This document shows, piece after piece, positions 4,778-42,810 of a stretch of 64,000 nt of DNA. Position 1 is the stretch's first letter. Every line of letters begins with the position of its first letter. Source of the stretch: an uncultured beta proteobacterium (GTDB lineage Bacteria; Pseudomonadota; Gammaproteobacteria; Burkholderiales; Thiobacillaceae); the NCBI GenBank assembly GCA_963782495.1, contig CAWAJU010000005.1, forward strand, positions 204,260 through 268,259, given 5' to 3'. A model generated the notes under the pieces. The model was given only the letters and a program-made list of their open reading frames with translations. It made no database searches and had not been told where the DNA came from. A program made the position numbers and the translations under genes.

Positions 4778-4939
4778 GGCGATCTCTCCGTGAGGTTCAG
4801 GCAATCACGCTCAGGCTGCAAAAACGGCGGAATGGTTCCTCAAGCTTCTTGATAGTCCTTTCCGACGGGCTTTGCCAGTTCGACTGGCAATTCAAGCCAG
4901 CGGCCATCGCTCATTGCTATCTTATGCTAAACCCACAAG

Positions 4940-5003
4940 GCGCAACTTCACAAACTCGACCGCCTTCCTCGCCCAACTTTCATTCCTATTGTCGGACCTG
5001 CCA
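4940..5003 (-). repeat. Decayed copy of the thiC 3'-end segment (copy C)
   Basis: CTTCACAAACTCGACCGCCTTCCTC (4946-4970) matches thiC 7426-7452 (CTTCACAAACTCGACCGACTTCACTTCC). GTCGGACCTGCC matches ATCGGACAGGCC further along. It shares the CTTCCTC 2-nt-shorter variant with copy A. Confidence 0.5.
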
Positions 5004-5052
5004 CCGTCTCCAAGGTCACGGAACTAAACTTCCGCAAGAGCGCCTATATGGC

Positions 5053-5535
5053 ATGTTCGGAAAACTTCAAAACAAGCTGCACGACTTTGTCGAAAGCTTC
5101 GCGCCCAGTCCCGAGACCCGCATGCGTCAGGAAATGGCGGCCCTCCAGCAAGCCTGTTGCCAGTTGTTGATGGAGGCGGCGCGACTCAGCGAGGCAAACA
5201 CCCAGCAGAAACGCGCCGTTGTCGCGCAGGTGATGCGGGAGCAGTTCACCATCCAGGAGGCCGATCTCACCGCGATGATGGACACCGCCGGCCGCCCGGA
5301 AAACCGGCTTACCTCCTACTACGACCAGGTGACGCAGATCAACAAGGGCTTCGGCCCCGCGCGCAAGGCGCGTTTCATCGAACAGCTCTGGCGCGTCGCC
5401 ATGGCGGACGGCAACATCGACATGTACGAGGACCAGCTGGTGCGCACGCTGGCCGAGCTGTTGTACGTCCCGCACACCGATTTCATCCTCGCCAAGAATC
5501 GGGTGCAGGCAGGCGTCGCCCCGCAGATGAATTGA
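5053..5535 (+). CDS. TerB-family (tellurite-resistance TerB-like) protein
   Basis: ORF 4849..5535 trimmed to MFGKLQNKL. About 160 aa, with the TerB-like C-terminal block FIEQLWRVAMADGNIDMYEDQLVRTLAELLYV. Confidence 0.7.
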   Translation: MFGKLQNKLHDFVESFAPSPETRMRQEMAALQQACCQLLMEAARLSEANTQQKRAVVAQVMREQFTIQEADLTAMMDTAGRPENRLTSYYDQVTQINKGFGPARKARFIEQLWRVAMADGNIDMYEDQLVRTLAELLYVPHTDFILAKNRVQAGVAPQMN

Positions 5536-5580
5536 CTTGCATCTGCTGACCGAATATTTGAGCTTTCTCAAACCTTCCGA

Positions 5581-5695
5581 TACACCTCGGCCCCCTGCTT
5601 CACAAACTCCACCGACTTCCTCCATGCCTTTCTGCAGCGCCTCTTCATCAGACAGGCCTTACTGGTCAGCGTAGTCGCGCACGTCCTGGGTAATA
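5581..5695 (-). pseudogene. thiC 3'-end remnant (copy A)
   Basis: About 85% identical by eye over about 115 nt to thiC 7408-7522. Translated in the thiC frame it gives [24 protein letters not shown], followed by a 2-nt deletion. It therefore carries both an in-frame stop and a frameshift. Confidence 0.75.
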
Positions 5696-5815
5696 TTTCA
5701 AACAACTCGAGCCCAGCTCCTTGAATTGTCAGGGCATGTCCCTATTGCGGATCGACAACCTGGTCATCCGGGATAATCTATCGGCTGATACCGCATGCTT
5801 GCCTGTGCATGGAGT

Positions 5816-7117
5816 TCAGCGTTTCATCAGATAGACCAGCCTGACGTGCGGCGGCAGGACTGCCGTTTCGGCCACGGTGATGCCGTGGACATGCTTTTTA
5901 GAGGCATAGTCGAACTCGCCGGCCGGCCATGATCCATATCTGCTCTTGTCCGTGGTATTCGGCCCGCCGCACGAAGCGCCATGGGCGTGTTTATCCTGGC
6001 CGGCCCTTACACCGACCTGTGCCAGGTCGGCGGTCCCCATCAGAAACCGGTCGCGCAGGTCCGGGGTGCCTTCTTCGCCATTGCAGATTGTCCAGCCTTC
6101 GGGCGCGATGAGGTGACGACCGCCGGTTTCGTCGAGATGGATTGCGCGCTCGGTGGGATGCCAAGCGATGATGGTTCCAGCCGGCACGCCGTAGGAGCCT
6201 TCCGGCAACGGTGGTGCCTCGTGCTGGGCCAGCAACGCCCGCGACCTGGCGAACTCGGGAGGCAGCAGATTCCAGTAGCTCCGCGCCGTCGCAGAGATGG
6301 GCGCACCAAGCATTTTCAACTCGCCGCTACGCAACAGCGCCAGTGTTTCGATAATGTCCTCCAGTCGGGTGAGCACGGCAGCGCCGGTATAAGGCTCGCC
6401 GTTGCGCCGGAAGCCGCCCGAGGTGGCCACGAATATCAGTTCCACGCTGCTGTCGGTCAAGGCAGTTTTTGCTGTCTGGTCGATCTTTCCGTCGGCACTG
6501 CCGCTGAGAAATGTGGCCCGGAACGCGGCCCTGACCTTGGTCGTCTGCTCCTGGCTCGAACCCATCACCCGTCCGCGTATTGCAAGCCGGCAGCCGTATT
6601 TGATCGCGCTCACATAGTGGGACCCGTAATCCAACAGGAACTGACGCTCGAACGAGTCCGGGCTTAATTCGCCGTCTTCGCCCCGAGGACGTCTTTCCGG
6701 GTCCCAGATCAGGCGTTCATGTCCGAGTATTTCCGTGATATCGCTGGTCCTGCCCTTGGAATCCTGCAAAGCGTAGATCGAATGCGAGTTGCTGCGCTCC
6801 TCCACCGCCTTATCCAAAGCTGCCGAGGCGCTCACAAAACCATAACTGCCCTGGAGATAGGCGGCCAGGAAGTGCGCCTCCTCGCGCGTGGAACTGGCCT
6901 CTTTCAGCTCGAAATGCTCATCTACCGTGAATTCCGATACTTCCTCCATGCCCCTCATCAATCTCGGAATTCTTAACGGGCAATCGCCTGCTCGGCGCTT
7001 CGGCGCCCCGGGATCAGACATGTCCAGCCCGTCTCCCAACCTGAGCAAGCCTTCATTGATAAAGCCCGGATTCACCTGGTATTCATCGCGGCCAATATTC
7101 GGGTTTGTGGCTGACAT
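5816..7117 (-). CDS. MACPF-like pore-forming domain protein with C-terminal phage tail-collar-like domain
   Basis: ORF 5816..7204. Start preferred at ATG 7117 (GGAGGA 4-5 nt upstream); ATG 7129 is the alternative. YGSHYVSAIKYGCRL fits the MACPF signature (Y/W)G(T/S)H(F/Y)x6G(G). The C-terminus (PEGWTICNGEEGTPDLRDRFLMG ... PPHVRLVYLMKR) resembles tail-collar/MdpB-type domains. Confidence 0.7.
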   Translation of the reverse strand: MSATNPNIGRDEYQVNPGFINEGLLRLGDGLDMSDPGAPKRRAGDCPLRIPRLMRGMEEVSEFTVDEHFELKEASSTREEAHFLAAYLQGSYGFVSASAALDKAVEERSNSHSIYALQDSKGRTSDITEILGHERLIWDPERRPRGEDGELSPDSFERQFLLDYGSHYVSAIKYGCRLAIRGRVMGSSQEQTTKVRAAFRATFLSGSADGKIDQTAKTALTDSSVELIFVATSGGFRRNGEPYTGAAVLTRLEDIIETLALLRSGELKMLGAPISATARSYWNLLPPEFARSRALLAQHEAPPLPEGSYGVPAGTIIAWHPTERAIHLDETGGRHLIAPEGWTICNGEEGTPDLRDRFLMGTADLAQVGVRAGQDKHAHGASCGGPNTTDKSRYGSWPAGEFDYASKKHVHGITVAETAVLPPHVRLVYLMKR

Positions 7118-7394
7118 GTCGTCCTCCATTTGTAAGTTGAGTCCAAGTGAACGGAATCTGCCAGGCGCCGCAGCTCGTTTTGCGCATGAATCGATATTCG
7201 GCAAATATCGACAATAATCCGTATAGCACGCGCTATTTTCCGGCCTCGCAGTGCGACTTCACCGTCTGGCTCGCCATCCCCCTCTACAGGTCCCACTTTC
7301 GCTGATGTCCTGCTTGGCAGCGAGGTCTCGCACTCCCCGGGCAGGCCCAATTTTACTTGGCGGCAACTGTGCCTCGATTGTTGTCGTGGGTACC

Positions 7395-9452
<2,058 letters not shown>

Positions 9453-9537
9453 GAAAGTAGCGGAAATATGGAATAATTGCAAGATAAGACCCTACTTAAC
9501 TGATTGAATTTTCGAAATTTAAGCGGAGCTGGAACTG

Positions 9538-10191
9538 ATGGATATTGAGCAGGTGCGCTACAAGATGGTCGAACAGCAAATCCGTCCCTGGGAGGTATTG
9601 GATCCGGATGTGCTGGAACTTCTCATCAAGATCAAACGGGAAGAATTCGTCCCCGGACCCTACCGCTCCCTGGCCTTCGTGGATATGGAAATCCCGCTTG
9701 GCCACGGTGAACAGATGTGGTCACCCAAGCTCGAAGCCCGCGCCCTGCAGGAGTTGCAACTGAAAAAACCCGACAAGGTGCTGGAAGTAGGCACTGGCAG
9801 TGGCTATCTCACCGCCTTGCTCGCCTCGCTCGCGGCCCATGTGCGCTCGGTGGATTGCATCGGCGAATTCGTCGCCGATGCAAGCAAAAAACTCGCGGCC
9901 CATGGCTTTGGGAATGTCACTCTTGAAACGGGCGACGGCGCCAGCGGCTGGCCTGCACATGGCCCTTATGACGCCATCGTCATGACTGGTTCGTTGCCCT
10001 TGCTGCCGGACGCACTGCCCAAGCAACTGGCCCCGGGCGGACGGCTGTTCGTGATCCTGGGCGAAGGGCCGATCATGCAGGCTACCCTGTTCACTTGCGT
10101 TGCGCCGGGTTCCTACCGCCGTACGGTGCTGTTCGAAACCCTGGTCAAGTCACTGGCACATGCGGCCCAACCGGAACGTTTCGTCTTCTAG
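9538..10191 (+). CDS. Protein-L-isoaspartate O-methyltransferase family protein
   Basis: 217 aa. SAM-binding motif VLEVGTGSGYLTALLA and overall COG2518-like sequence. Confidence 0.8.
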   Translation: MDIEQVRYKMVEQQIRPWEVLDPDVLELLIKIKREEFVPGPYRSLAFVDMEIPLGHGEQMWSPKLEARALQELQLKKPDKVLEVGTGSGYLTALLASLAAHVRSVDCIGEFVADASKKLAAHGFGNVTLETGDGASGWPAHGPYDAIVMTGSLPLLPDALPKQLAPGGRLFVILGEGPIMQATLFTCVAPGSYRRTVLFETLVKSLAHAAQPERFVF

Positions 10192-29381: not shown

Positions 29382-29491
29382 CTCGTCGCCTCCGCATTTT
29401 CTGTCGTCAATTGAAGCCCCATCGTGTCGGCTGCAGGCGCCATTCGCGGGCGTGCGGATCCCCGCATGCGGGGCCCCTCCTTACTGCTCAT
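29378..29491 (-). CDS. 37-codon mini-cistron, unit B ([37 protein letters not shown])
   Basis: Its ATG overlaps the stop of unit A (ATGA) and its TGA overlaps the murB ATG (ATGA). GGAGG lies 7 nt before the murB ATG. Translation is inferred from geometry only. Confidence 0.4.
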   Translation of the reverse strand: MSSKEGPRMRGSARPRMAPAADTMGLQLTTENAEATR

Positions 29492-29496
29492 GTCGC
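29426..29496 (-). repeat. Conserved 71-nt repeat core (copy 1, murC-murB junction)
   Basis: gtcggctgcaggcgccattcgcgggcgtgcggatccccgcatgcggggcccctccttactgctcatgtcgc. Contains the palindrome CCCCGCATGCGGGG. Confidence 0.9.
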
Positions 29497-29601
29497 ACCC
29501 TCCCCAAGAGAAGTGGGCAACTCAGTCAGCCTCGCGTCGGCTGCAGGCGCCATTCGCGGCCGTGCGGATCCCCGCATGCGGGGCCCCTCCTTACTGCTCA
29601 T
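29488..29601 (-). CDS. 37-codon mini-cistron, unit A ([37 protein letters not shown])
   Basis: Its ATG overlaps the murC TGA (ATGA) and its TGA overlaps the ATG of unit B. It is the tail of track ORF 29488..29868. Confidence 0.4.
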
Positions 29602-34643: not shown

Positions 34644-35725
34644 CTCAGCTTCAACGTCGACAACCCAATCAGCACCAGCATCATGGAAATGATCCAAAAC
34701 CTGACCACGACCTGCGTCTCCTTCCAGCCCTTGAGCTCGTAGTGGTGATGTATGGGTGCCATGCGGAAGATGCGCTTGCCGGTCAGCTTGAAGCTGGCGA
34801 CCTGGATCATCACCGAGAGGGTTTCCATGACGAACACGCCGCCCATGATGAACAGCACGATCTCCTGCCGGACAATGACCGCAACCACGCCGAGTGCAGC
34901 ACCCAGCGCCAGGGCACCCACATCGCCCATGAACACCTCGGCCGGATACGCGTTGAACCAAAGGAAAGCCAGGCCGGCGCCGGCAATGGCGGCGCAGAAC
35001 ACGATCAGTTCGCCGGCCCCCGGAATGTGTGGGAGCCCAAGATATCTGGAGAACACCGCGTTGCCTGCAACGTAGGCGAAGATCCCCAAGGCCGATGCCA
35101 CCATGACCGTGGGAAGGATGGCGAGCCCGTCGAGGCCGTCGGTCAGGTTGACCGCATTGGATGAGCCGACGATGACGAAATAGGTCAGCACCAAAAAGCC
35201 CAGGGCGCCGAGCGGAATCGCCACGTGTTTGAAGAAGGGCACGATCAGCTCTGTCTGCGCCGGCAGATCGGTGGTGTACACAATCGCGAGCGCGGCGCCA
35301 ATGCCGAACACGGACTGCCACAGGTACTTCCAGCGTGCGATGAGTCCCTTGGGATTCTTGTGCACGATCTTCCTGAAATCGTCCACCCAGCCGATCGCAC
35401 CAAAGCCCAGGGTCGTCAGCAGCGCGATCCAGACATAGCGGCTGTGGAGATCCATCCAGAGCAGGGTGGCAATCGCCACCGAAACCAGGATCAGCGCACC
35501 GCCCATGGTCGGCGTGCCGGCCTTCACCAGATGGGTTTGCGGACCGTCATCGCGCACCGACTGGCCGAACTTCATGATCTTGAGCCGGTTGATCATCCAC
35601 GGACCGACCACAAAGGAAATGCTCATGGAGGTCAGCACTGCCAGCACCGCGCGCAGGGTCAGGTAATTGAAGACGTTGAATGCCCTGATGTTCTGACCGA
35701 CGGTTTGGAACAGCCATAGCAGCAT
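34640..35725 (-). CDS. mraY: Phospho-N-acetylmuramoyl-pentapeptide transferase
   Basis: 361 aa with a strong MraY match ([18 protein letters not shown]). Confidence 0.96.
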
Positions 35726-37089
35726 CAGAGAGCCCCTTGACCGACGAAACTGTCCACCACGCGCTCCATCTTCATGGCCCGGGACCCCTTCACCAGCACT
35801 GTCACGTCCGGCGCGAGTTCGTTTTCCAGATCCGCCAGCAACTCCTCGATGCGTTCGTAATGCAGCGCGCCGGCACCGAACGCCTGTACGCTCGACTTGG
35901 ACCAGTCGCCCAAAGCCAGCAGGCGATCCACTCCGGCCTGACGTGCCGCCAGGCCTACCTGGGCATGGAGCGCGGCGGATTCGTCGCCCAGTTCGCGCAT
36001 GTCGCCCAGTACCAGGATTTTTTTCCCAGGCCGCTGGGTCAGCACGGCGATTGCGGCTCTTACCGAATCGGGGTTGGCGTTGTAGGTGTCGTCGATAAAC
36101 AGCGCGCCATTATGACCAGCCTTGTTTTCGAGCCGCCCCTTGACGCCGGTAAAGCCGGCAAGGCCTTGTTCTATCGCGTGCAGACTCGCCCCCATGGCCA
36201 ACGCGCAGGCCGCCGCCGCCAGGGCATTGCGGGCGTTGTGCTCCCCGGCAAGCTGCAGACGAACCGACACTTCACCCTTGGGTGTATGGATGCTGAGCAT
36301 CTGGCCGCTTTGCTCGCCCGCGCTTTGCCCACGTACCTCGGCGCTGGCAGCGAAACCAAAGTCGACGACACGGCACGCTGTATTCATGCTGCGCCACTGG
36401 CCTGCATAAGGGTCATCGGCATTGATCACCGCCACGCCGTCTGACCGCAAACCCTGGTAGATCTCACCCTTGGCTTTTGCAATCGCATCGAGCGAGCCGA
36501 GCAAGCCCACATGCGCCGACTGGGCATTGTTAACCAGAGCGACGGTGGGCCGGGCAAGATGGGTCAGATAGGTCAGCTCGCCAAAATGGTTCATGCCCAT
36601 TTCCAGCACCGCGAACCGATGGCCGGATCGCAGGCGAAGCAGCGTCAGGGGGCAGCCGATGTCGTTGTTCAGATTGCCCTCGGTGGCGAGCACGCAGTTG
36701 GCGTCACCCGCTTCGGTCCGCAGTATGGCTGCAAGCATTTCCTTGACCGTTGTCTTGCCATTGCTGCCGGTGATGGCCGCCAGCGGAATTGAAAATTTCT
36801 GCCGCCAGTGGGCCGCCAACTTGCCCAAGGCGATACGGGTGTCTTCCACCACGATGGAGGGCTTGAGTTCGGGTGCGCCATAATGATTAAGTACCACCCC
36901 GGCCGCGCCCTTTGCCAGGGTGTCCGCGGCAAAGCGCGCGGCGTCGTAGGTCTCGCCCCGCAATGCAATGAATAGCTGCCCGCTGGCGATGGAACGGCTG
37001 TCGGTGGAAACCGAATCAAACTCCCCGTCCTCCCCGACCAAGTGGCTCCCCATGGCCTGAGCCGCTTCGGACAGACTCATCATGCTCAT
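35725..37089 (-). CDS. murF: UDP-N-acetylmuramoyl-tripeptide--D-alanyl-D-alanine ligase
   Basis: Start taken at ATG 37089 ([11 protein letters not shown]), with GGAGG 7 nt upstream. This ATG overlaps the TGA of the 74-codon mini-cistron. Mur ligase motif ITGSNGKTT. Confidence 0.92.
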
Positions 37090-37310
37090 GACCACACCTC
37101 CGACGGCGCACTCACGGTCTCTTGCCCCTCATGTGGCTGGAGGTGTTCATTCGCGGACGTGCGGATCCCCGCTGCGCGGGGCCCCTCCTTACTGCTCATG
37201 ACCACACCTCTGCCAGCGCCGCTCCCGGTGCAGAATCTCCATGTCGGTGTGCGGTGCTCATTCGCGGACGTGCGGATCCCCGCTGCGCGGGGCCCCTCCT
37301 TACTGCTCAT
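37086..37310 (-). CDS. 74-codon mini-cistron made of two 37-codon repeat units ([19 protein letters not shown]... twice)
   Basis: Its ATG 37310 overlaps the murE TGA (ATGA) and its TGA 37088-37086 overlaps the murF ATG (ATGA). It is the tail of track ORF 37086..37913. Confidence 0.4.
   Translation of the reverse strand: MSSKEGPRAAGIRTSANEHRTPTWRFCTGSGAGRGVVMSSKEGPRAAGIRTSANEHLQPHEGQETVSAPSEVWS
37147..37205 (-). repeat. Conserved repeat core (copy 3, murE-murF junction)
   Basis: tcattcgcggacgtgcggatccccgctgcgcggggcccctccttactgctcatgaccac. Same family as copies 1 and 2, with a different hairpin loop (CCCCGC-TGC-GCGGGG). Confidence 0.9.
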
Positions 37311-37316
37311 GACCAC
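37258..37316 (-). repeat. Conserved repeat core (copy 4, murE-murF junction)
   Basis: 59/59 identical to copy 3, 111 nt away. Contains the murE stop codon. Confidence 0.9.
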
Positions 37317-38746
37317 GCCCCCAGTGCCCGCATGGCGGCGTCCACATCGGAAAACGGGTGCCTTTCGCCGGCAACTTCCTGGTAATCCTCGTGACCCTTG
37401 CCGGCGATCAACACCACGTCCGCCGCGCGGGCCATACCCACCGCTTCGAAGATGGCGCGGGCCCGGTCGGGCTCGACCTTGTAGCCTGCCTTCATGCCTG
37501 GAGTGATGTCGTCGATGATGGCCAGCGGATCTTCGTGGCGCGGATTGTCGCTGGTCACGATTACGCTGTCTGCGCCTTCGCTGGCCGCCCGTCCCATGAG
37601 CGGCCGTTTGCCGCTGTCGCGGTTGCCGCCGCAGCCAAACACGCAGATCAACCGGCCCTGGGCGGAAGTCTTCCTTAAACTGGCCAGGACTTTTTCCAGC
37701 GCGTCGGGCGTATGCGCATAGTCCACCACGACCAGGGGTTGTGCTCCGCCCCCCAAAGTCTGCATACGGCCCGGCGGCGGAACAATTAGGGACAGAAGCT
37801 CGCAAGCCCGGGTCAGCGGCACCTCCGAGACCAGCAGTGTGGTCAGAACTGCAAGCACATTGCTGGCATTGAAGCGGCCCACCACCGGCGCCCGCAATTC
37901 TGTCTGCCCCCAATCCGAACGAATCCCGATGCGCAGGCCCAAGCGGTCGGCCTGGAGTATTTCGCCGATTACGGCGCCGCGTTCAAAGCCATAACCCGCG
38001 ATGTGCAGGCCCTTGATCTCGCGCTCAAGTTGACGGCCGAACTCGTCATCCAGATTGAGTACGGCATTGTTCAGGCCGGGCCAGTTGAACAGCCGGGCTT
38101 TGGCTGCCGCATAGGCATCCATGTTGCCGTGGTAATCAAGATGATCGCGCGACAGGTTGGTCAGGACGCCCACATTGAACTGGCAACCGACGGCGCGGCC
38201 CTGATCCAGACCGTGGGAAGAAACTTCCATGGCGCAGGCCCGCGCGCCGTCCTGGAGATAGCGCGCCAGGGCTTGTTGGAGTTCGATGGCATCCGGCGTG
38301 GTGTTGGCGCTGGGGCTCAAGCTGCCGGGGAAGCCGTTGCCCAATGTGCCCAGCAGGGCAGTCTTGCGTCCCTCGCGAGCAAGACATTGGGCAATCCAGT
38401 GGGCAACCGAGGTCTTTCCGTTGGTGCCCGTCACGCCGATCATGTGCAGGTGCTCGGAAGGCCGGCCGTAGACCTGACTGGCAATTTCGCCCACCCGGTT
38501 CCTCAAGTCCTCCACTCCGGCATTCGGCACAGACCACGCCGGGTCCCAGACATAGCCCTTCCTTTCCCACAATATTCCATCGGCACGGTTGGCAATCGCC
38601 TGGGAAATAAAATCCCGACCATCCAGACGAGTGCCGGGATAGGCAGCGAACACCAGACCCGGGCCCGCCTTGCGACTGTCCGCACTCAGCGCTCTGACGG
38701 AAGTGCCCAAACGATGCAGGATGTGTTCAGCCGATTCCATGCTCAT
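37307..38746 (-). CDS. murE: UDP-N-acetylmuramoyl-L-alanyl-D-glutamate--2,6-diaminopimelate ligase
   Basis: 479 aa. VTGTNGKTS motif and the DNPR motif (SDNPRHEDP). Confidence 0.95.
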   Translation of the reverse strand: MSMESAEHILHRLGTSVRALSADSRKAGPGLVFAAYPGTRLDGRDFISQAIANRADGILWERKGYVWDPAWSVPNAGVEDLRNRVGEIASQVYGRPSEHLHMIGVTGTNGKTSVAHWIAQCLAREGRKTALLGTLGNGFPGSLSPSANTTPDAIELQQALARYLQDGARACAMEVSSHGLDQGRAVGCQFNVGVLTNLSRDHLDYHGNMDAYAAAKARLFNWPGLNNAVLNLDDEFGRQLEREIKGLHIAGYGFERGAVIGEILQADRLGLRIGIRSDWGQTELRAPVVGRFNASNVLAVLTTLLVSEVPLTRACELLSLIVPPPGRMQTLGGGAQPLVVVDYAHTPDALEKVLASLRKTSAQGRLICVFGCGGNRDSGKRPLMGRAASEGADSVIVTSDNPRHEDPLAIIDDITPGMKAGYKVEPDRARAIFEAVGMARAADVVLIAGKGHEDYQEVAGERHPFSDVDAAMRALGAWS

Positions 38747-42328: not shown

Positions 42329-42376
42329 AATCCGAACATCAAATTATATCTACAACATATTGAATTTATGTGAATT

Positions 42377-42694
42377 GGATGAGTCAACCTGTAAGCCGGG
42401 TTCTGTCATGGACAGTCATTCCTCTAGACCTGCCATCGCTGGCGGGTTCAAGCCACCTACCCGCAGACTCAGCGAGCCGCTTCGTCGCCTGCCTATTTGG
42501 TGTTGCTCCGGATGGAGGTTGCCGCGTTTCACCCTTTGTAATAGTGCCGCGATAAACTGCGGTAATCGCAAAGACTCGTCTCTGTGGCCCTGTTCCTCGC
42601 CTCGCGGCGTACGGCCGTTAGCCGTCATCCTGCTCTGCGGAGCCCGGACTTTCCTCTGCCGGCGTATCGTCGGCAGCGACTGTCCAGTCAACTC
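42377..42694 (-). ncRNA. rnpB: RNase P RNA (bacterial type A)
   Basis: Minus strand reads GAGTTGACTGGACAGTCGCTGCCG...GAGGAAAGTCCGGGCTCC...GGGTGAAA...ACAGAACCCGGCTTACAGGTTGACTC. This matches the universally conserved RNase P blocks and P1 pairing. The two ORFs called here are artefacts. Confidence 0.85.
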
Positions 42695-42810
42695 ACCCAC
42701 ATTTATTATAGGGTTGATTAATGGAATGCGATTAGCTAATGATAAGTATGGGGCCGATGCGATGACTCCTAGTTGACTTTCTCGGACACACAAAAATAGG
42801 AGAATTCAAA

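Follow-up and report, generated by a model that had tools for sequence, protein, structure and literature searches.

What allows a repeated element to lie between two consecutive genes of a cell-wall operon that would otherwise meet in a four-nucleotide stop/start overlap? The question is raised by a 64,000-nt stretch of contig CAWAJU010000005.1, from an uncultured beta proteobacterium of the Thiobacillaceae, referred to here as the window. Two direct repeat units occupy its murE/murF junction, and two more occupy its murC/murB junction. The feature is real and is not a product of chance. The repeats form an interspersed tandem family of about 110 nt per unit in uncultured Thiobacillaceae-like Betaproteobacteria, with a unit number that varies between genomes. 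The interpretation we favor, at a probability of about 0.7, is that of an intercistronic repeat, similar to the mycobacterial MIRU elements, that relays translational coupling from the gene before it to the gene after it. Coordinates refer to the whole window, and the units and mur genes of both loci are on the minus strand. The features at the murE/murF junction are as follows.

37307-38746, minus strand: murE coding sequence; NCBIfam murE match over residues 16-475 of 479, reaching profile position 471/472
35725-37089, minus strand: murF coding sequence, ATG at 37089; NCBIfam murF match from profile position 2
37086-37310, minus strand: bridging open reading frame (ORF) of 74 codons plus stop, ending ...EVWS; its ATGA overlaps the murE stop
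37310-37308 on 37309-37307, minus strand: ATG of the bridging ORF overlapping the TGA of murE
37200-37310, minus strand: repeat unit EF1, 111 nt (repeat spacing 111; nhmmer E=1.7e-29; covariance model 75.2 bits)
37090-37199, minus strand: repeat unit EF2, 110 nt (direct repeat, nhmmer; covariance model 76.3 bits)
37260-37310, minus strand: 51-nt structured core of EF1, with start codon, P0, P1, P2, GGGG bulge and apical hairpin, supported by covariation (alignment A3)
37292-37278, minus strand: apical hairpin of EF1, CCCCGC-GCA-GCGGGG
37149-37199, minus strand: 51-nt structured core of EF2, hairpin at 37181-37167
37207-37211, minus strand: AGAGG, Shine-Dalgarno-like, 7 nt upstream of the unit 2 ATG
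37097-37101, minus strand: GGAGG, Shine-Dalgarno sequence contributed by the element, 7 nt before the ATG of murF
37304-37316, minus strand: native junction sequence GTGGTCATGAGCA, with a further copy after each unit (37193-37205 and 37083-37095)

Most of this layout had been proposed in a first-pass annotation made from the letters of the sequence, and it was recovered on re-reading: units of 111 and 110 nt with cores identical at 59/59 positions (37258-37316 and 37147-37205, 0 mismatches, where shuffled sequences lead to an expectation of none), a 74-codon frame from the TGA of murE to the ATG of murF, AGAGG or GGAGG 7 nt before each following ATG, and unit ends that mimic the native end of murE, GTGGTCATGAGCA being present three times. 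The ATG of unit 2 is at 37199, 111 nt downstream of the first, and the murF ATG lies 110 nt further on. The length of EF1 is divisible by three, so it is fused in frame to EF2, and the frame that begins at 37310 remains open for 74 codons until its TGA at 37088-37086 overlaps the ATG of murF at 37089. The same annotation had called the 3' halves of the two units unrelated, which proved incorrect. They are diverged yet alignable, and each has a counterpart in relatives; EF1 resembles the first unit of the related contig L134, and EF2 resembles both the second L134 unit and the one unit present in L132. The murE gene, whose 3' end reads GGG GCG TGG TCA TGA, is called identically (8344-9783) in the source contig, L126 (ENA ERZ25039539 contig_2925), and the deposited MurF, P0001, shows 100% identity over 454 aa with an identical start codon. 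A consensus scan found no promoter or terminator inside the units. A CRISPR-like array was considered and ruled out, given that there are two units only, that the "repeats" are 59 nt long, and that they sit inside an operon.

Contigs from relatives, fetched by means of their MurF homologs, supply both filled and empty sites. The murE/murF junction is empty, a plain ATGA overlap in GGGGGCGTGGTCATGAGCATGATGAG, in three genomes (L127, L128/L129 and L131, with MurF identities of 87%, 81% and 79%). A single unit occurs in L130 (MurF 86%) and in L132/L133 (74%), the latter a Thiobacillaceae metagenome-assembled genome (MAG). Two units occur in the window and in L134, where the orthologous 74-codon ORF is called as a gene (4839-5063) with a 4-nt overlap with both neighbors. 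The murC/murB junction is empty, with an ATGA overlap, in L128 and L132; in L127 it holds a 73-nt remnant from which the core is gone, and L127 has an extra unit at murB/ddl. These empty sites identify the units as insertions, as first proposed, and not as part of a longer murE or murF coding region; together with the profile coverage of both genes, they rule out a mis-called gene boundary or a duplication of murE/murF coding sequence. In L130, MurF (P0003, 1301-2701) was called with 466 aa, 12 residues too long, because the gene caller began inside the repeat unit; the true start is a GTG/ATG at about 1343-1349.

The sequences show insertion with junction duplication, start/stop overlaps, and an open frame in the required phase. 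The unit enters at the stop codon of a gene or a few bases past it, in the orientation of that gene, and 9-13 nt of the junction are duplicated after each unit. Where the junction is an ATGA overlap, a stop for the upstream gene and a start for the downstream gene are both restored by this duplication. Each unit begins with an ATG or GTG start over the upstream TGA, continues through the 51-nt core and a poorly conserved spacer of about 45 nt, and finishes with GGAGG or AGAGG 7-8 nt before the duplicated junction. The 110-nt length equals 2 mod 3, and one frame is free of stops.

The same arrangement is found at a second junction in the window.

29382-29601, minus strand: second locus, two units of 110 nt, 29601-29492 and 29491-29382 (nhmmer, covariance model)
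29601, 29491 and 29381, minus strand: overlaps of the murC TGA with an ATG, of a TGA with an ATG, and of a TGA with the murB ATG

Each of the murC/murB units has a separate 37-codon ORF, the two being chained through ATGA overlaps, and the hairpin loop is AT in place of the GCA seen at murE/murF. The duplicated junction sequence is GCGACATGA. The identities of MurC and MurB were confirmed by NCBIfam, with complete ends. An 18-nt piece of the core has four occurrences in the window, two at each locus, and nhmmer and the covariance model likewise find exactly four copies in the 64 kb, in agreement with the initial assignment of both loci to one family. It had also been supposed that only the loop differs while the stem is kept; this is correct for the copies within the window but does not extend across genomes, where stems change in a compensatory manner. 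All dcw junctions of the source contig overlap except the two that bear units and murB/ddl, which has a 10-nt gap.

The family extends to other loci. A scan with an exact 26-nt pattern against 185,579 genomes, one per species, returned 5 contigs from 3 MAGs, all Thiobacillaceae or beta-proteobacterial. One contig (L004) has two units at nrdR/ribD. Another pair (L001/L005) has a unit where an ABC-transporter gene ends (3' end), ahead of a GNAT-family gene; the second unit of L005 has decayed, and the TAA that would shut the frame in use is now CAA. In L003, orthologous to L042, a unit lies upstream of a divergent mutM. In L002, a unit is found in frame inside an alpha-2-macroglobulin family gene, where it accounts for 37 additional residues missing from 7/7 aligned homologs. 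A looser scan of metagenomes gave at least 137 core matches; among the matches listed, 73 have flanks AGGA...GA and form subfamilies. Over about 80 nt, subfamily B is clearly homologous to the type seen in the window, and an example at accC/prmA shows GTGA overlaps and 37-codon ORFs. Another subfamily is represented at dctQ/dctM, where the overlap is ATGA. In 14 distinct junctions, the start of the unit lies 0-12 nt past the stop of a co-oriented upstream gene, and Pfam confirmed 9/10 upstream ORFs submitted, with matches reaching the C-termini. Some called ORFs, such as P0158, span up to 3 units. The copies at unrelated junctions dispose of the concern that the units might be a local mur duplication confined to the cluster. 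Placement at stop/start junctions had been taken as a property of the element, a claim upheld by the 14 junctions and by the bridging described next, but not as an exclusive one, given the copies in L002 and L003/L042.

Every one of nine co-directional junctions (9/9, from the window, the MAGs and the relatives) is bridged by an ORF or by a chain of ORFs linked through NTGA, with ATGA or GTGA overlaps at both ends and with start-to-start distances in the phase that bridging requires. The murE/murF orthologs in the window, L134, L130 and L132 retain frames of exactly 37 or 74 codons, and these coexist with 20-32% divergence in the spacer and with compensated, paired 1-nt indels. The encoded peptide varies. 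Differences between the window and L134 number 12/16/16 at the three codon positions in the element, as against 65/21/12 in the adjacent murE. A 2-nt loop in place of a 3-nt loop shifts the frame after the hairpin, and copies with the shorter loop encode 11 other residues in place of GPRAAGIRTSAN. Copies beginning GCGAGCAG are read from the GTG in GTGAGG, a few bases upstream, in frame 3 (VRLRAVRRGPA...); two frames, F1 and F3, are therefore in use on equivalent nucleotides, and the conserved nucleotides CGACATGGAGA are read in one frame in the window and in a different one in L132. A protein search with the 74-aa ORF returned 1 relative when word-indexed and 9 when exhaustive. Because both frame and peptide vary and no codon-position bias is seen, the ORF appears to be kept open for its translation and not for its product.

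The core was analyzed in alignment A3, which holds 31 distinct cores from subfamilies A and B and supplies the column numbers used here. The fold is a rod whose outermost helix, P0 (columns 3-53 and 4-52), includes the start codon and is followed by a tandem G.A/A.G loop. Pairs 7-49 and 8-48 come next, then 10-43 and 11-42, then a second purine-rich internal loop. Innermost are P2, in which GGA of columns 14-16 pairs with UCC of columns 37-39, then a bulge of GGGG, and lastly the apical hairpin CCCCGC/GCGGGG. Standard pairs fill 95.4% of cells, and two-sided changes occur in 7/16 pairs; 0/500 shuffles match the observed values, and slid controls are 25-54% paired. Pair 4-52 is UA in 15 cores and CG in 15, such that a 5' ATG/GTG or GCG is matched by a 3' AAT or AGC, respectively. 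Pair 11-42 is alternately U-A or C-G. In L132, as in unit 2 of L134, a G-C of P2 is reversed to C-G. The hairpins of L132 and L011 have A-U in place of G-C, and that of L130 has the intermediate G-U. Structure prediction of the core had been suggested at the outset, and RNAalifold independently recovers the outer helix and the hairpin. Its register for P2, GG/CC (columns 17-39 and 18-38), is the weaker one and was set aside, since L132 breaks GG/CC while compensating GGA/UCC.

The presence of G-U pairs argues, as does co-orientation with genes, for the sense strand and, most simply, for messenger RNA (mRNA), and the covariation shows a core that is evidently under selection for structure on that strand. 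Such a core could serve mobility or could act on the mRNA. A GGAGG, AGAGG or GGAGA is present near the 3' end in 31/32 units of subfamilies A and B. Rfam gave no match at the element in the window, either at the gathering score or at E<=10, and none in 14 related loci except for one transfer RNA.

We propose the following course of events at murE/murF. Ribosomes ending murE would re-initiate at the overlapping AUG and read through the 74-codon spacer ORF, melting the cores en route. They would then terminate at the UGA that overlaps the murF AUG, where re-initiation would be aided by the GGAGG of the element. The translational coupling of the essential dcw operon would in this way be relayed across the insertion rather than broken by it. 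An identical course has been put forward for MIRUs (PMC12548453, PMC3184786, PMC2734929).

Several observations count against this relay, or limit what can be drawn from the data. That the bridging ORF is translated, and that coupling takes place, we infer from sequence. With lengths held fixed, shuffled interiors are bridged in 8-60% of trials per locus; open frames are common in GC-rich DNA, so the case depends on recurrence across loci and on upkeep in diverged orthologs, and several of these orthologs are not independent of one another. Copies away from coupled junctions exist (L002, L003/L042, L046 and L106). The folding energy of the 51-nt cores is no better than that of shuffled sequences (z from +0.55 to -1.7), and z is about 0 for both 251-nt regions; covariation is consequently all that counts as structural evidence, and the covarying sequences are related, with few independent changes. 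The term "mobile" reflects the filled and empty sites only, as neither a transposase nor a terminal inverted repeat nor any other determinant of mobility was found in the window or in the other loci, which extend to about 21 kb at most. The duplicated junction also equals, in part, the element's own ends (GAGCA, GGAGG), so that microhomology or recombination, instead of transposition, is a possible origin.

Three other explanations must be weighed. The core might be a cis-acting RNA that the host retains for RNase processing or stability, for protein binding, or for setting the murE:murF and murC:murB translation ratios, which would make the units regulators and not tolerated insertions. This explanation, which overlaps in part with a relay of coupling, we regard as unlikely. 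It accounts well for a core much better conserved than the spacer (49/51 and 43/51 for the cores against 47/59 and 43/63 for the spacers, window versus L134), for the helices that copies at the same locus keep by compensation (GCA/UGC in P2 and A-U in P3 in L132 and the second unit of L134), for the confinement of G-U pairs to the sense strand, and for the conservation of two tandem G.A/A.G internal loops across subfamilies. In EF2, moreover, the GGAGG of murF is able to pair with ACACCUCC (37146-37139), ACACCUCC and GGAGGUGU being perfect 8-bp complements. Yet the units are missing at both junctions in close relatives, and the same core is found beside unrelated genes and within coding sequence, a distribution more in keeping with a selfish repeat than with a dedicated regulator. 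A second helix that closes the variable region might hide the 3' Shine-Dalgarno sequence, but such masking is not significant across the family (mean unpaired probability 0.41, versus 0.47 for shuffles), although the window units trend lower, again not significantly; the unexceptional folding energy and the lack of an Rfam family also speak against a regulator. Alternatively, the units could be a repeat acting at the level of DNA (REP/REPIN mobilized by RAYT, derived from IS200/IS605, or a MITE), with the hairpin as a recognition site in single-stranded DNA and the ORF geometry as a by-product of survivorship in an essential operon. We consider this improbable. In its favor are a hairpin that is GC-rich, invariant in its stem and free in its loop, direct duplications at filled versus empty sites, the fact that at an ATGA overlap only junction-duplicating insertions can survive, and the ftsW/murG junction of relatives, where another kind of insert, also about 110 nt long, comes with a junction duplication of 25 nt.

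What tells against the DNA-level explanation is, in part, the lack of its expected hallmarks: terminal inverted repeats were not found, all arrays are direct with no inverted REPIN pairs, no GTAG-type motif lies 5' of the hairpin, and the copy number is low, as judged from the exact-match scan. IS200/IS605 elements, to our knowledge, make no target duplication. The constant distance of 0-12 nt from the upstream stop, the start codon, open frame and 3' GGAGG kept across subfamilies, and the compensated indels present a regularity that exceeds what survivorship would predict in non-essential, non-overlapping contexts. The last explanation, that the ORFs are real small proteins of 37 or 74 aa starting MSSKEGPR..., is the least credible, and we give it hardly any weight. 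Gene callers do call such ORFs (9891-10004 in L133, as well as the L134 example), a protein library contains seven clusters of similar ORFs of 74-122 aa, and the N-terminal 19 residues are alike among copies with a 3-nt loop. But this likeness is accounted for by conservation of core nucleotides, 2-nt-loop copies lose GPRAAGIRTSAN while others are read in frame 3, the frame of CGACATGGAGA differs between the window and L132, substitutions show no third-position bias, and no Pfam domain is listed for the 74-aa ORF. A protein-coding small gene was therefore rejected, on the basis of inconsistent frame and no codon-position bias.

A broader version of the relay interpretation can be offered tentatively, and we think it rather doubtful. 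Betaproteobacteria might harbor a large and so far undescribed superfamily of "coupling cassettes" that has the 51-nt core as its conserved functional module; its elements would home to stop/start junctions by means of the structured RNA or of translation termination, and through them the host might set the protein ratios of operons. Its signature is GGA-GGGG-CCCCGC-loop-GCGGGG-A-UCC, with tandem G.A loops and covarying basal helices. The subfamilies at murE/murF, accC/prmA, dctQ/dctM and other junctions would, on the same tentative footing, be abundant members in soil and sediment metagenomes. Both the covariation-supported core and the wider superfamily appear to be undescribed.

Additional repeats were encountered among these loci. 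In a sister subfamily, B', the hairpin is lengthened to GGGGACCCGCGCGC-GCA-GCGCGTGGGGTC; its units alternate with B units in the same tandem arrays (L026 3719-3840; L053 5086-5200 and 5330-5450; L104 12396-12510). A different repeat with an identical hairpin, AGTCGCGAAGCGTCTGTTGATCCGACTTCG-GGGGCCCCGC-TTCA-GCGGGGATCC-TTTACCGGCCGGAGGTCGGAAGCG..., occurs in the metagenome loci L022, L028, L081, L024, L048 and others, two per contig and about 6.5 kb apart, with no Rfam match. A further set, labeled Family C (metagenome loci L010, L023, L025, L062, L069, L097, L111 and L117), is conserved, single-copy and about 150 nt long. It shares the apical hairpin, its basal helices are long and covary (GCGCGCC...ACACGG // CCGTGT.GGCGCGC), and CCACCGGCCAAGGCCGGTGG in it resembles a terminator; it has no Rfam match and may be a small RNA or a leader.

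Two other dcw junctions of the relatives deserve description. The murB/ddl spacer always contains one ORF, of 28, 62 or 84 codons (L128 18460-18540; L132 18567-18755; L127 18670-18924). It begins on an NTGA over the stop of murB and runs as far as the start of ddl, and this holds for L128 too, whose spacer is free of units. Bridging mini-ORFs seem to be the rule at non-overlapping dcw junctions of this lineage. The insert at ftsW/murG is about 110 nt long (L127 14995-15132; L129 6380-6427; L132 14989-15102), is flanked by about 25 nt duplicated from the 3' end of ftsW (GATGCGCGGRAAGACMTTCTGATG), and contains a REP-like palindrome, CCCCTCACCCC...GGGCGAGGGGG; the corresponding junction of the window, at about 32089, is without insert. 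By its appearance, this insert belongs to a second family of repeats, whose insertion likewise duplicates the junction. Elsewhere in the window are two ordinary features, an RNase P RNA of class A (42376-42695, minus strand, 243.9 bits) and a TPP riboswitch (9354-9451, minus strand, 65.4 bits), and a region at 4946-7526 with direct repeats of 25-77 nt at 82-92% identity, 1827-1829 nt apart, probably from tandem paralogous genes.

If the relay holds, a repeat has entered the 4-nt stop/start overlap of an essential cell-wall operon without breaking it, and a selfish or domesticated repeat brings with it a full kit for termination and re-initiation. The family would then provide a natural, non-mycobacterial system for two questions: over what length coupling can be chained by spacer ORFs of 37, 74 and 100 codons, and whether the number of units tunes protein ratios. 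The core, common to several subfamilies and not in Rfam, is a candidate for a new structured RNA or mobility signal. For annotation, the units are a source of spurious "hypothetical proteins" of 37-122 aa and of shifted start codons.

How do the units compare with known repeat systems? BRE, described by Hot et al. (2011), consists in the part of PMC3110155 drawn on here of betaproteobacterial, GC-rich units of 75-91 bp in variable-number tandem arrays with no known function, present in Bordetella and Comamonadaceae, mostly intergenic but at times overlapping ORF ends or lying wholly within coding sequence. The likeness to the present family, also a betaproteobacterial variable-number tandem repeat found between genes or within coding sequence, is one of behavior only. 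By nhmmer, hidden Markov models of our family gave E >= 0.88 against 10 BRE sequences, and the BRE model, of a consensus of about 90 bp, gave E >= 0.1 against all loci; similarity was thus not significant in either direction, and homology to BRE was rejected. The start/stop-bridging ORFs seen here are a further difference, as that part of PMC3110155 makes no mention of any. RPE (Ogata et al. 2000, as summarized in the section of PMC3184786 available to us) comprises palindromic repeats of about 100-150 nt, in frame within Rickettsia genes, to which they add peptide. By this description the in-frame copy of L002 in the alpha-2-macroglobulin gene is similar; RPE lies chiefly within genes, however, whereas stop/start junctions dominate here.

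The same section of PMC3184786 presents REP/BIME, ERIC and Correia/NEMIS as transcribed, structured intergenic repeats in polycistronic mRNAs that can affect stability or processing. They are without the relay of start, ORF, Shine-Dalgarno sequence and stop that our units have. They are built as inverted repeats or bounded by terminal inverted repeats, and they are numerous; no such trait was found here. REP/REPIN repeats are imperfect palindromes of 20-40 nt with a conserved 5' tetranucleotide, often arranged as inverted pairs and numbering tens to hundreds of copies. Inverted pairs are absent here, all arrays are direct, the window has four copies, and the exact-pattern scan reached only 3 MAGs. 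As to MITEs, a scan for terminal inverted repeats brought up nothing beyond the junction copies, which are palindromic (GGGGCCCC), and a single internal pair of 8 bp; a target-site duplication is present, GTGGTCATGAGCA at murE/murF and GCGACATGA at murC/murB.

MIRUs, reportedly the subject of Supply et al. 1997, Mol Microbiol 26:991, offer a precedent that the first-pass annotation had not named, although its interpretation is otherwise supported. As far as the portions of PMC12548453 and PMC3184786 used here describe them, they are mobile, insert at start codons, and have an internal ORF coupled at -4 nt; the proposal, also in the portion of PMC2734929 used, is that translation is thereby kept or tuned within the polycistron. 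The relevant portion of PMC3184786 gives units of 40-100 bp with tetranucleotide direct repeats at the ends. Host and dimensions differ: our host is a betaproteobacterium and not Mycobacterium, the units are 110-111 nt long, and the duplicated junction is 9-13 nt rather than a tetranucleotide. The present family also has a covariation-supported 51-nt core, common to other subfamilies, and one copy in frame within a gene. The two systems agree in having short direct tandem units whose number varies between genomes (0, 1 or 2 at murE/murF) and in placement, co-oriented, between the cistrons of operons (here murE/murF, murC/murB, murB/ddl, nrdR/ribD, accC/prmA and dctQ/dctM). They further agree in a small ORF whose ends overlap the flanking stop and start at -4, seen here at 9/9 junctions, and in direct repeats revealed by filled versus empty sites (alignments A4 and A5). 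The principle of the relay dates from 1997. What makes this family a good experimental system is its phylogenetic breadth, its structured core and its position within an essential dcw operon. Judged by its architecture, the family would stand to MIRUs in a relation of functional analogy rather than of membership.

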